The position numbers were made by a program, and so were the translations under genes. Source: Candidatus Limnocylindrales bacterium (GTDB taxonomy: Bacteria > Chloroflexota > Limnocylindria > Limnocylindrales > CSP1-4). From it: a DNA stretch of 64,000 nucleotides. The DNA lies in NCBI GenBank assembly GCA_036002525.1, contig DASYTG010000039.1, forward strand, positions 81,298-145,297, written 5' to 3'. This document shows, piece by piece, positions 33,812 to 44,176 of the stretch (its first letter is position 1; every line of letters starts with the position of its first letter). The notes beneath the pieces were generated by a model. That model did not search any database, was not told the DNA's origin, and saw only the letters and a list, made by a program, of their open reading frames with translations.

Positions 33812-35725
33812 GTGCCGAAGAGCTACGTTCGACTGACCCGGCCCCTCGTCCGAGACTCGAAGGGCGGCGATCTCCGCCCGGCGACCTGGGACGAGGCGCT
33901 CACCCGCACCGTCGCCGGCTTCGAGGCGGCCCGCACCGCCCACGGAGACCGGACGTTCGGCGTCTTCAGCTGCTCGAAGGCGACCAACGAGGTCAACTTC
34001 GCGGCGCAGAAGTTCTCGCGGGTCGTGCTGGGCAGCAACAACATCGACAGCTGCAACCGCACCTGACACGCCCCGAGTGTCGCCGGTCTGGCGACCGTGT
34101 TCGGTGCCGGTGGCGGCACAAGCTCCTACCGTGAGGCCGAGGAGACGGACCTGATCGTCCTGTGGGGTAGCAATGCCCGCGAGACGCATCCGATCTTCTT
34201 CCACCACCTCCTCCGCGGCGTCCGCAACGGCGCCCGGCTCTACGCGATCGATCCGCGCCGGACCTCGAGCGCGGAGTGGGCCGACGCCTGGCTCGGGCTC
34301 GACGTCGGGAGCGACATCGCGCTGGCCAATGCCGTCGCCCGCGAGATCATCGCGGCGGGTCTCGAGAACCGCGAGTTCATCGACAGGGCGACCTCCGACT
34401 TCGAGGCGTACAGGGCCGGCGTCGAGCCGTACACGCTCGAGTACGCCGAGCGCGAGACCGGCGTCCCGGCCGAGGCGATCCGCGAGCTCGCCCACGCGTT
34501 TGCGAAGGCCGACCGGGCGATGATCTGCTGGACCCTCGGGATCACCGAGCACCACAACGCGGTCGACAACGTCCTCGCGCTCATCAACCTCGTGCTGCTG
34601 ACCGGGCACGTCGGGCGGTACGGGAGCGGCGTCAACCCGCTGCGCGGCCAGAACAACGTCCAGGGCGGCGGCGACATGGGCGCCCTGCCGGACCGGCTGC
34701 CCGGCTTCCAGCACGTCGAGAACGACGAGCTCCGCGCGAAGTTCGACCGGGCGTGGGGCGTGACGATCCCGCCGAAGCGGGGCTGGCACCTGTCCGGGAT
34801 GTTCGACGCGATGGAGCGGGGCGAGCTCACCGCGGTCTACTGCATCGGCGAGAACCCGCTCCAGTCCGAGGCCGACCAGCACCGCGCCCGCCGGCTGCTC
34901 GAGGGCCTCGACTTCCTGGTCGTCCAGGACCTGTTCCGGACCGCGACGGCGGACCTCGCCGACGTCGTCCTGCCGGCCGCCGCCGCGTGGGCCGAAAGCG
35001 AGGGCACGGTCACGAACTCCGAGCGGCGGGTCCAGCGGGTCCGCAAGGCGCTCGAGCCGCCGGGCGAGGCGCGCGACGACCTCGCGATCATCTCCGACCT
35101 CGCCCGGCGGATGGGCTGCGACTGGGGCGAGCCGACGGCGGAGCAGACGTGGGACGAGCTTCGCTCGCTGTCGCCCGTCCATGCCGGGATGAGCTATCGG
35201 CGGCTCGAGGAGCTCGGCGGGATCCAGTGGCCGTGCTACGACGAGAGCCACCCGGGCGAGCTGTTCCTCCACTCGCGGCTGTGGGAGGACCCGGTGCCCG
35301 GCAACCGGGCGCCGTTCTCGCCGGTCGAGCACGACCCGCCGGTCGACAAGCTCGACGCGGACTTCCCGATCCGGCTGACCACCGGCCGCCGTCTCGATTC
35401 CTACAACACCGGCGTCCAGTCGGCCGGCTACACCTCGCCGCTCCGGCGGGGCGAGTCGCTCGACGTCTCGCCGGAGGACGCGGCGACCTACGGCCTCGCT
35501 GCGGGAGAGGTCGTCCGCGTCGTGTCGCGCCGTGGCCAGGTCGAGGTGCCGGTCAGACTCGACCCGTCGCTCCGGCCCGGGCTGACGTTCATGACGCTCC
35601 ACTTCCAGGACGACGTCGCGACGAACCTCCTGACGATCGACGCGACGGACCCGAAGTCCGGGACGGCCGAGTTCAAGGCGACGGCGATCCGGATCGAGAA
35701 GCTGGCCGAGCCGGTTCGCGCCTGA
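33812..35725 (+). CDS. fdhA: formate dehydrogenase alpha subunit, catalytic Mo-bisPGD module; selenoprotein (UGA 34064-34066 = Sec); lacks its own Fe-S N-terminus
   Basis: AGGAGG (33800-33805), 6 nt, then GTG 33812. ORFs 33665-34066 and 34097-35725 are in the same frame. NIDSCNRT-TGA-HAPSVAGL aligns with FdhF CARV-U-HGPSVAGL. Also NPLRGQNNVQGGGDMGALP and C-terminal TAEFKATAIRIEK. Confidence 0.9.
34073..34104 (+). promoter_or_regulatory. bacterial SECIS hairpin
   Basis: CCGA-G-UGUCGCC-GGUCU-GGCGAC-CGUGU-UCGG. The 6-bp GC-rich upper stem is capped by GGUCU, with the apical GGUC at nt 22-25 after the U of UGA. This is the same register as the E. coli fdhF SECIS as recalled. Confidence 0.65.
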
Positions 35726-35865
35726 GGCGGCGCCCGCGCCTCGCGAGCCGGTGGGCGGGTCAACTATCGGACGAAGGCGCCGATCGCCCTGCCCCCCGAC
35801 CCGTTGGGGCTTCCTCCACACGATGCGCGACCCGCCCAGCGGTTCGTCAGTCGCTCGCGGCATCA

Positions 35866-43109: not shown

Positions 43110-44176
43110 GCGGCCCCGGACTCTCGCCAGAGCGCGACCCGGCCCCCGATCCGCGCGCCCCGCACGCCGACGCTGCGCCGGGGGCCCAGCCGCTCACCGA
43201 GATCATCCTCAAGCCCGCGGCCCGCCCGAGCCGCCCGCCGCAGCCCCCTCCTCCGCCGGTTCGGCCGCCGGTCGAGGTCTCGATCGACGGGGTCGCGGCC
43301 ACTGTCCCCCAGGGGTCCACGATCCTCGAGGCCTGCCGCGCCCAGGGAATCGACACCCCGACGCTCTGCTATCTCGAGAACCTCACCCCCGTGAATGTGT
43401 GCCGGGTGTGCGTCGTCGAGGTCGCCGGCTCGCGGGTCCTCGTGCCGGCCTGCTCGCGAAAGGTCGAGGCCGGGATGGAGATCCAGACCGATTCCGAGCG
43501 GGTCCGCCACTCGCGGAAGATGGTCCTCGAGTTCCTCGCGTCGTCGGTGGACCTGTCGACGACGCCATCGGCCGCTGGCTACGTCGAGCGGTACGGGGCG
43601 GACCCGGCGCGCTACGGCCCGCCCGCCGGGCCCGCGGCCGCAGGCGAGCGCGACGCCCACGAGCCGGGTCACCACCACGCGCCGTCCGGCGGGCCGGAGG
43701 CCGCCACCGTTCACCAGCCGGTGAAGATCGACAACGAGCTGTACGTCCGCGACTACTCGAAGTGCATCCTCTGCTACAAGTGCGTCGAGGCGTGCGGCGA
43801 GGACGCCCAGAACACGTTCGCGATCGCCGTCGCCGGCCGCGGCTTCGACGCCCGGATCTCGACCGAGGTCGCGGTCCCGCTGCCCGAATCGGCATGCGTC
43901 TACTGCGGCAACTGCATCGGGGTCTGCCCGACCGGTGCGCTGATGTTCAAGTCGGAGCACGACATGCGGGCGGCCGGGACCTGGGACGAGTCGGCCCAGA
44001 CCGTGACCGAGACGATCTGTCCGTACTGCGGCGTCGGCTGCGCGCTGAACCTCCACGTCCAGGACAACGAGATCGTCAAGGTCGACTCGCCGCTCGACTC
44101 GTCGGTCACCGACGGCCACCTGTGCATCAAGGGCCGCTTCGGCTTCCAGTTCGTCCAGAGCCAGCCTCGCGACTGA
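43106..44176 (+). CDS. formate dehydrogenase alpha subunit, Fe-S N-terminal module only (2Fe-2S, 2x4Fe-4S, and the molybdopterin-type 4Fe-4S domain)
   Basis: GTG 43106 overlaps the upstream stop (GTGA). VEVSIDGVAATVPQGSTILEAC, CYLENLTPVNVCRVCVVEV, CILCYKCVEAC, CVYCGNCIGVCP, CPYCGVGCALNL...GHLCIKGRFGFQFV, then a stop. The protein ends exactly where the catalytic domain should begin. Confidence 0.85.
   Translation: MSGPGLSPERDPAPDPRAPHADAAPGAQPLTEIILKPAARPSRPPQPPPPPVRPPVEVSIDGVAATVPQGSTILEACRAQGIDTPTLCYLENLTPVNVCRVCVVEVAGSRVLVPACSRKVEAGMEIQTDSERVRHSRKMVLEFLASSVDLSTTPSAAGYVERYGADPARYGPPAGPAAAGERDAHEPGHHHAPSGGPEAATVHQPVKIDNELYVRDYSKCILCYKCVEACGEDAQNTFAIAVAGRGFDARISTEVAVPLPESACVYCGNCIGVCPTGALMFKSEHDMRAAGTWDESAQTVTETICPYCGVGCALNLHVQDNEIVKVDSPLDSSVTDGHLCIKGRFGFQFVQSQPRD

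Follow-up and report, generated by a model that had tools for sequence, protein, structure and literature searches.

This analysis concerns a formate dehydrogenase (FDH) locus in a 64-kb stretch of DNA from a Candidatus Limnocylindrales bacterium (contig DASYTG010000039.1; the whole stretch is termed the window), in which the alpha subunit is encoded by two separate genes. Two described enzymes resemble it most closely. The cytoplasmic, NAD+-linked FdsABG(D) enzymes of Rhodobacter capsulatus and Cupriavidus necator (6TGA, 6VW7) have a contiguous alpha subunit, FdsA, separate FdsB and FdsG chains, and FdsD. In the R. capsulatus enzyme (RcFDH), according to PMC7171172, the path from the bis-molybdopterin guanine dinucleotide to flavin mononucleotide (FMN) runs through the iron-sulfur (Fe-S) clusters A1 (termed FS0), A2, A3, A5 (a [2Fe-2S] cluster) and B6. 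The His-ligated cluster A4, at the dimer interface, and cluster G7 are off-pathway, and the authors place the natural module boundary near residue 250, before FS0. FDH1 of Methylobacterium extorquens (MeFDH1, Fdh1AB; 7E5Z, 7VW6) is described in PMC10869683 as having an alpha subunit with W/Mo-bis-pyranopterin guanine dinucleotide (bisPGD), FS0 (A1), two further [4Fe-4S] clusters (A2 and A3), one [2Fe-2S] cluster and no His-ligated cluster. Its single beta chain combines FdsB and FdsG, that is, NuoE and NuoF, and carries FMN, a [4Fe-4S] cluster and a [2Fe-2S] cluster. The alpha subunit of MeFDH1 is one chain of 989 aa.

The window encodes the cofactor set of MeFDH1 in a different arrangement, in which the alpha subunit is cut after FS0 into two genes, the catalytic part comes first, and the active-site ligand is selenocysteine (Sec):

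33812-35725, plus strand: catalytic half of the FDH alpha subunit, 637 codons including Sec (Pfam, PDB alignments)
41238-43109, plus strand: NuoE-NuoF fusion, the diaphorase subunit, 623 aa (PF01257, PF01512, PF10531, PF10589)
43106-44176, plus strand: Fe-S half of the FDH alpha subunit, 356 aa (PF13510, Fer4 families, PF04879)
44376-45314, minus strand: FdhD, the FDH-specific sulfurtransferase and cofactor-insertion chaperone (PF02634, 2.2e-66)

MeFDH1 is matched by the Fe-S half at 5e-33, by the catalytic half at 1.4e-122 and by the NuoE-NuoF fusion at 2.4e-103. It is very probable that the three plus-strand genes encode a soluble, NAD+-linked, Sec-containing Mo/W FDH of the MeFDH1 kind, composed of three polypeptides, whose alpha subunit is made as two chains. 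We infer the physical assembly of the two halves, the substrate, the NAD+ specificity and the catalytic direction from these resemblances. An earlier note on this DNA had proposed that the alpha subunit is split into two genes in permuted order on one strand, and its proposal is borne out by the domain content, by the way in which the two products tile known alpha subunits, and by the intact state of both genes.

The catalytic gene starts with GTG, 6 nt downstream of an AGGAGG at 33800-33805. It encodes domains II-IV, which hold the Mo/W-bisPGD, and the rest of domain I, and the FS0 domain is absent. Pfam detects Molybdopterin (PF00384) before and after an in-frame UGA (1.5e-9 and 9.7e-54, respectively) and Molydop_binding (PF01568, 7e-25) at the C-terminus; neither a Molybdop_Fe4S4 domain (PF04879) nor a Cys motif is found in the Pfam scan or the translation. 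The product aligns over its full length with FdhH, FdhA and FdsA; the PDB chain 7bkb_D is matched at 6.7e-143, and the motifs CNRT-U-HAPSVAGL and NPLRGQNNVQG align with the same motifs in 7bkb_D and 7qv7_S. The active-site Sec/Cys, the His and the conserved Arg (in RGQNNVQG) are all present. In two related loci (L001 and L002 of the survey described below), the ribosome-binding site and start of this gene are kept, and the sequence further upstream has diverged.

The GTG start codon of the Fe-S gene and the TGA stop of the NuoE-NuoF fusion gene overlap within a GTGA. The earlier note took the AGGAGG-6 nt-GTG arrangement and this coupling to mean that both halves look expressed; both signals are present in the sequence, from which expression is a prediction. 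The product has sites for one [2Fe-2S] cluster, two ferredoxin-type [4Fe-4S] clusters, and the FS0 [4Fe-4S] cluster with the lysine of LCIKG, and Pfam detects Fer2_4 (PF13510, 1e-20) and Molybdop_Fe4S4 (PF04879, 2.4e-19, residues 299-351). Residues 53-290 form a HoxU/NuoG-like relay of [2Fe-2S] and two [4Fe-4S] sites with 12 invariant ligating cysteines, and the HoxU model NF005745 (2.5e-39) and NuoG models match the protein. In total, 16/16 cluster-ligating cysteines are invariant in the homolog alignment (A2), which extends down to 55% identity. The claim that this gene carries every Fe-S domain of an alpha subunit is slightly overstated: the [2Fe-2S] site and three [4Fe-4S] sites including FS0 are there, and the His-ligated [4Fe-4S] site (PF10588; RcFDH cluster A4) is missing, as Pfam gives no match and the stretch aligned to it contains neither Cys nor His. 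The LCIKG lysine, which bridges FS0 and the pterin in FdhH, is located here on the Fe-S chain. About 50 Pro/Ala-rich residues extend the protein at its N-terminus (43106-43261), a feature that in alignment A2 is retained only among Limnocylindrales homologs; homologs from other lineages start near residue 45-56.

The break between the two products is clean. Residues 52-355 of the Fe-S half align with residues 21-308 of R. capsulatus FdsA (E 2.4e-46), and residues 7-629 of the catalytic half align with FdsA residues 308-932 (6tg9_A), which means that FdsA is tiled by the two products with neither gap nor overlap. The alignment of the catalytic half with E. coli FdhH (1aa6_A) starts at FdhH residue 61, and the cut thus falls at residue 60/61, where in FdhH the FS0 sub-domain of domain I ends. 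The Fe-S product ends in LCIKGRFGFQFVQSQPRD, with the stop 12 codons past LCIKGRFG. The NCBIfam model of the FDH alpha subunit, TIGR01591, is covered in the same complementary manner, with model positions 1-53 on the Fe-S half and, on the catalytic half, 52-127 upstream and 130-672 downstream of the UGA. The alignments with contiguous FdsA and FdhH that the earlier note had called for thus place the break where it had been predicted, in the short linker after the FS0 4Fe-4S domain. This boundary (FdsA residue 308, after FS0) differs from the one near residue 250, before FS0, that is given for RcFDH in PMC7171172. Neither half contains a frameshift, the active-site residues and cluster cysteines are whole, and no other alpha-type gene is found within the 64-kb window.

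The NuoE-NuoF fusion contains a [2Fe-2S] thioredoxin-like domain, an FMN/NAD(H) site, an SLBB domain and an N3-type [4Fe-4S] site. It matches 7e5z_B (MeFDH1 beta) at 2.4e-103 and 6vw7_B at 9e-104. NuoE is fused at its N-terminal side, and the protein terminates at residue 623, right behind the NADH_4Fe-4S domain (539-616).

An in-frame TGA interrupts the catalytic gene, and the mechanical list of open reading frames (ORFs) therefore breaks it into 33812-34063 and 34097-35725. Several features of the window bear on how this codon is read:

34064-34066, plus strand: in-frame UGA, read as Sec of the active-site Sec-His pair (CNRT-U-HAPS) (translation, column conservation)
34079-34095, plus strand: hairpin GUCGCC-GGUCU-GGCGAC resembling a selenocysteine insertion sequence (SECIS), beginning 15 nt past the UGA (comparative pair counting)
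30427-30523, minus strand: tRNA-Sec with anticodon UCA (ARAGORN; Rfam RF01852, 66.9 bits, gathering score 47)
29035-30411, minus strand: selA (tblastn with SelA of L002)
27182-29020, minus strand: selB (tblastn with SelB of L002; Pfam SelB domains)
31053-32120, plus strand: selD, a selenophosphate synthetase of the Cys type (Pfam AIRS and AIRS_C; N-terminal TDCGGCAAK; synteny with L002)

At the UGA column, TGA is found in 40 distinct loci of the split type and TGC or TGT in 13, the latter all from actinomycetes. Folding of the single sequence downstream of the UGA gave no better result than shuffles (z = -0.42), and Rfam returned no bacterial SECIS match here, only the tRNA-Sec being above threshold. 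Comparative pair counting, which replaced single-sequence folding, revealed the hairpin: 240/240 cells of the stem are paired over 40 TGA sequences, and compensatory changes occur in two pairs. The GGUCU loop is invariant in Sec loci, even at synonymous positions, while Cys loci vary there and break the stem. The linkage of sel genes to the catalytic gene is also seen in L002, L005 and L069. The covarying hairpin and the neighbouring tRNA-Sec, selA, selB and selD support the reading of 34064-34066 as a Sec codon. An EamA transporter gene (32124-33734, minus strand) sits between the sel genes and the catalytic gene.

The split is not peculiar to this genome. More than 120 clusters of proteins homologous to the Fe-S half, at 79-91% identity, derive from Limnocylindrales and other Chloroflexi metagenome-assembled genomes (MAGs); their lengths are 340-400 aa, in nearly all cases about 350-360, and each has Molybdop_Fe4S4 as its last domain. 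A scan of one genome per GTDB species yielded 80 loci, on each of which five proteins were mapped and the ORF ends audited. At every locus with at least 53% Fe-S identity and enough flank, the gene order is catalytic half, NuoE-NuoF fusion (nuoEF), Fe-S half, on one strand. All three genes are complete in 47 loci, and fdhD, often the next gene, adjoins the Fe-S half in most loci mapped. Across split-type loci the Fe-S ORF stops 0-25 codons past KGRFG, and the catalytic ORF begins at a Y-x-R-L-T-x-P-L motif. In several genomes the catalytic start is preceded by in-frame stops as near as 3-6 codons, which leaves no space for an FS0 domain. Two megabase-scale contigs carry the catalytic half, DUF5946, nuoEF, the Fe-S half and FdhD in this order, with sel genes upstream in one; on both, the catalytic half is called in two pieces because of the TGA.

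The search of related genomes that the earlier note had suggested therefore finds the same split and order in at least eight phyla. Outside the actinobacteria, the carriers, uncultured or known from MAGs, belong to the Chloroflexota (Limnocylindrales, Dehalococcoidia), Acidobacteriota, Gemmatimonadota, Planctomycetota and Verrucomicrobiota; those of the Acidobacteriota include four Bryobacterales, two of which are complete chromosomes. Carriers are many in the Actinomycetota, including Acidimicrobiia and Gaiellaceae, and cultured examples are Streptomyces scabiei ATCC 49173, S. parvulus JCM 4068, Amycolatopsis azurea DSM 43854 and Nonomuraea. The operon of S. scabiei is compact, with its four genes placed head to tail at 6213-8138, 8145-9977, about 9971-10834 and 10843-11712. 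A single Streptomyces cluster of the catalytic half, built at 90% identity, has 2251 members, which are annotated generically. A chimeric contig, which the earlier note had considered as a cause of the permuted order, does not account for it, since the same order occurs in more than 50 independent assemblies, complete chromosomes included. The split layout is the defining trait of a widespread operon family that would have spread both vertically and horizontally.

More distant relatives have a different layout. In 13/13 loci at or below 44% Fe-S identity, FS0 and the catalytic domain are in one gene; most of these are wholly contiguous, usually after nuoEF, and three (L071, L073 and L074) are cut before FS0, the conventional boundary. 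These three come from Anaerolineales and 'delta proteobacterium' MAGs at 42-44% identity, and their relay protein ends before FS0; L073 has two catalytic genes in tandem, FS0 included. A second search took the top matches from 1.84 billion representatives, which were mostly fragments and frameshifted read-throughs. No Molybdopterin domain was found by Pfam in Fe-S matches of at least 50% identity among proteins with room for one by length or match position, and the longer matches above 50% identity are read-throughs into NuoF or MobA-like neighbours. Proteins with a Molybdopterin domain after FS0 all have at most 45% Fe-S identity.

Some loci of the survey are incomplete or of doubtful origin. 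Two Streptomyces loci, L063 (10001-11443) and L068 (10001-11301), have only a 3' fragment of the Fe-S half and fdhD, with neither the catalytic gene nor nuoEF within 10 kb upstream, and look like decayed copies of the operon. Copies 72-74% identical lie on the contigs of L014 and L006, which bear the labels 'Candidatus Micrarchaeaceae archaeon' and 'Gemmata sp.'; mis-binning or recent transfer is the probable cause, and the MAG taxonomy of the split operon is therefore to be read with care.

The three genes evolve together and under purifying selection. Pairwise protein distances in the 47 complete loci are correlated between the catalytic half and the Fe-S half (r = 0.815), between the catalytic half and NuoEF (r = 0.79), and between the Fe-S half and NuoEF (r = 0.77). 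The maximum distance between catalytic halves inside the split clade (0.44) is smaller than the minimum distance to contiguous forms (0.56). The ratio of nonsynonymous to synonymous substitution rates (dN/dS) is 0.16-0.29 for all three genes against the Sec-type relatives L001, L005 and L009, taken in increasing distance, and 0.16-0.25 against L001 and L009 alone.

Several observations weigh against the proposed enzyme. The three separate pieces score 556.3, 64.7 and 55.8 bits with TIGR01591, and no single piece passes the equivalog cutoff of 666.25 bits, so that the substrate assignment rests on the active-site motifs and the linkage to FdhD. The halves are not co-transcribed in this window, and no promoter-like or terminator-like signals are seen near either of them in a scan that is uninformative at 71% GC. 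Elsewhere, L063 and L068 retain a fragment only, which means that the module can decay, and L007 (8124-10897) and L019 (3666-6421) have NuoEF and the Fe-S half with no catalytic half in their upstream flanks of 8 kb and 3.6 kb, respectively; these two are possible further cases of separated halves.

Alternatively, the two products could be functionally independent, with NuoEF and the Fe-S protein forming a HoxEFU-like diaphorase for another enzyme and the catalytic protein working without a proximal cluster or with another partner. The Fe-S protein is indeed a conserved stand-alone family whose N-terminal 250 residues resemble HoxU/NuoG, and the genes are not adjacent in this window or in L007. 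However, its Molybdop_Fe4S4 domain would have no role without a molybdopterin partner, and exactly this domain is absent from the catalytic protein. The genes are adjacent and in one direction in 47 complete loci from at least eight phyla, their distances co-vary (r = 0.8), and FdhD follows the Fe-S gene. Purifying selection, co-variation and invariant cysteines together make an unrelated stand-alone role of the Fe-S protein unlikely, and we regard independence as quite improbable. The earlier note had named an Fe-S product unrelated to the catalytic gene as a possible refutation; the product does belong to a stand-alone family, yet it is linked in an operon with the catalytic gene across phyla and bears the very domain which that gene lacks.

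A second alternative accepts the split and questions the distance between the halves. The earlier note gave this distance as about 7.4 kb, which is correct here (catalytic stop to Fe-S start) and is the largest seen, but it is a local peculiarity, as the norm of the family is a compact operon with nuoEF alone between the halves. Elsewhere, the distance is 1.6-2.0 kb in most lineages (nuoEF only) and 2.5-3.5 kb in Limnocylindrales, where the slot behind the catalytic gene holds same-strand accessory genes (DUF5946, glyoxalase, a 209-aa unknown); in L069 it is 4.5 kb, with a Na/Ca exchanger in the slot. DUF5946 genes occupy the slot in L001 (7562-8083), L002 (7577-8086), L003, L004 and L085. Nowhere in the window is there a counterpart of DUF5946, the glyoxalase or the other genes that relatives have between the halves, and an ORF at 35917-36393, considered as a DUF5946 candidate, was rejected for want of any similarity. 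In their place the window has a non-homologous block of four genes (Pfam, blastn synteny), seen in this window only:

36108-41013, minus strand: the four-gene block as a whole
36108-36926, minus strand: methyltransferase (Pfam)
37605-38318, minus strand: DUF5317 (Pfam)
about 38315-39630, minus strand: major facilitator superfamily (MFS) transporter (Pfam)
39640-41013, minus strand: HD-domain protein (Pfam)

Because this block is on the minus strand between the catalytic gene and nuoEF, the halves are now separate transcription units in this genome. The separation could be an assembly artefact between the catalytic gene and nuoEF, given that the block is in no other locus. A metagenome scan with the HD-domain protein found relatives at 32-53% identity only, none of them close and beside nuoEF, and the contigs of the nearest relative (P0001) are too short for a cross-check of the junctions. 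Yet blastn synteny with L001 and L002 breaks off at 35732, 7 nt past the catalytic stop, and picks up at 41243, at the nuoEF start, with flanking synteny on both sides. The slot is the same one that holds variable genes in relatives (DUF5946, glyoxalase, Na/Ca exchanger). The G+C content is 71% throughout the window, that of the block being the same as its surroundings, and there are no junction repeats. Because the breakpoints coincide with gene boundaries in a slot that varies among relatives, the evidence argues for the 5.5 kb block being a real rearrangement, and an artefact is considered to have a very low probability. A mobile element as the source of the block was rejected, as there are no direct or inverted flanking repeats and no transposase.

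Less credible still is the decay of a broken fdsA, of which the two genes would be remnants, with a functional contiguous alpha subunit elsewhere in the genome. The stop inside the catalytic gene in the mechanical ORF list, the unrelated genes between the halves, and the truncated remnants in some Streptomyces (L063, L068) would fit decay. The internal stop, however, is a Sec codon that relatives conserve, accompanied by a SECIS hairpin and neighbouring sel genes. In addition, dN/dS is low against L001 and L009, the reading frames, cluster cysteines and active-site residues are whole, and no form other than this split was found in close relatives. Purifying selection, co-variation of the genes and the invariant cysteines all but exclude the remnants that the earlier note had raised as an objection.

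An electron-bifurcating FDH of the Bfu or HylABC-FdhF2 type is likewise exceedingly unlikely: NuoE-, NuoF- and NuoG-like modules are combined with an FDH and the PDB matches include bifurcating HydB-type chains, but the NuoF part lacks the C-terminal two-cluster ferredoxin extension (HydB/BfuB chains run about 80 residues past the aligned region), NuoE is fused and not separate, and the hosts are largely aerobic soil lineages. The lack of this extension makes a plain NAD+-linked enzyme the best reading.

In such a three-chain NAD+-linked FDH, the catalytic polypeptide would provide bisPGD and the Sec-His-Arg active site and have no Fe-S cluster of its own. The Fe-S polypeptide would give FS0, with the LCIKG lysine, in trans, in addition to two [4Fe-4S] clusters and the [2Fe-2S] cluster, and its gene is predicted to be translationally coupled to that of the NuoE-NuoF fusion with its [4Fe-4S], FMN, [2Fe-2S] and NAD(H) site. 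The remaining domain-I segments in the catalytic chain would clamp FS0 in trans as they do in cis elsewhere. By homology to RcFDH and MeFDH1, electrons would pass from formate to Mo/W, the pterin, FS0 and two [4Fe-4S] clusters in turn, and from there through the [2Fe-2S] cluster and the NuoF [4Fe-4S] to FMN and NAD+. FdhD (44376-45314) would mature the cofactor, and tRNA-Sec, selA, selB, selD and the SECIS hairpin would decode the UGA.

Compared with FdsABG, which is the best structural template for the Fe-S half, all of the on-pathway clusters and the flavin (A1-A2-A3-A5-B6-FMN, as given in PMC7171172) are represented here, and the differences are the contiguous FdsA, the additional A4 at the dimer interface, the separate FdsB and FdsG, and the presence of FdsD in that enzyme. 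Other systems share single features. HylABC-FdhF2 of Gottschalkia acidurici, the hydrogen-dependent CO2 reductase (HDCR), and the loci L071, L073 and L074 also have the Fe-S relay and the catalytic subunit on separate polypeptides, but in these FS0 is on the catalytic polypeptide, whereas here it is on the relay subunit; HylB moreover has extra clusters of the bifurcation type. FwdB/FwdD provide a precedent for an FDH-type bisPGD catalytic unit split over two polypeptides at a domain boundary. Their cut, however, is at the C-terminal cap (domain IV) and not after FS0, and there is no permuted order around a diaphorase gene. In HoxEFU of NAD+-reducing [NiFe] hydrogenases, the equivalent of NuoEF plus the Fe-S half is a comparable flavin/Fe-S module, but HoxU lacks Molybdop_Fe4S4 and the partner is a hydrogenase.

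The earlier note knew of no description of such a split, and a literature search agrees. No description of an alpha subunit split after FS0, or of this gene order, was found in the literature searched, including a 2026 Chem Rev review of FDHs; subscription journals were mostly outside the search, so that a prior mention is possible. The names seen in public databases are generic: 'molybdopterin oxidoreductase family protein' or 'formate dehydrogenase major subunit' for the catalytic half, 'NADH-ubiquinone oxidoreductase-F ... domain-containing protein' for NuoEF, and '2Fe-2S iron-sulfur cluster-binding protein' or 'YjgC' for proteins closely homologous to the Fe-S half.

Duplication followed by deletion is a known route for the circular permutation of proteins, and contiguous relatives mostly have nuoEF followed by fdsA. 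A speculative origin of the split operon is that nuoEF-fdsA was duplicated in tandem and that the first nuoEF-FeS part and the last catalytic part were then lost, which would give the order catalytic-nuoEF-FeS. A single event, followed by wide horizontal spread, would fit the sharp identity gap that separates split from contiguous forms. To our knowledge, FS0, when present, is otherwise always on the bisPGD catalytic polypeptide. Whether the family is an unrecognised, widespread class of NAD+-linked FDHs, in which FS0 is delivered in trans by the diaphorase-side subunit and which arose once by 'circular permutation' at the operon level, seems to us evenly balanced.

Tandem fdsA copies exist among the relatives (P0150 and L073). 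In P0150, a protein of 1405 aa in the representative library, a contiguous FdsA runs in frame into another Fe-S region, which is followed by FS0 and the beginning of a Molybdopterin domain. This tandem duplicate, whose end may be a Sec codon, is the kind of intermediate that a duplication/deletion model needs.

If FS0 is delivered in trans, a possible rationale is that the Sec-containing catalytic module could be matured by FdhD apart from the rest and then plugged in. Another is that failed UGA decoding would yield an 84-residue peptide and not a dead Fe-S fragment that titrates the flavoprotein. The operon is present in thousands of sequenced genomes, cultured Streptomyces and Amycolatopsis included, and its recognition as one three-subunit NAD-linked FDH would alter the assignment of C1 and formate metabolism in abundant soil lineages, among them Limnocylindria, Acidobacteriota and Actinomycetota. 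It would also be a natural case in which a bisPGD catalytic domain can be cut away from its proximal cluster with single-residue precision and, presumably, joined to it again, which is relevant to modular CO2-reducing catalysts, and Cys-type versions occur in aerobic culturable hosts. As a gene fission, it is clean, fixed across phyla in permuted order, and traceable to contiguous relatives. The locus in the window belongs to a large family that has already been sequenced, and its interest is greater if trans-delivery of FS0 is true and moderate, for specialists, otherwise.

Synteny with relatives continues downstream over 46369-56655, with an ornithine/diaminopimelate decarboxylase gene (46369-47637, minus strand), a DUF2277 region, and a gene of 1329 codons (52666-56655, plus strand) that matches the B12-dependent methionine synthase of L002. 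Downstream of selB, positions 26402-26480 (plus strand) match two Rfam families below their gathering scores, 6C RNA at 33 bits (gathering score 47) and CcsR1 at 26 bits (gathering score 65), and may encode a small RNA with C-rich loops.

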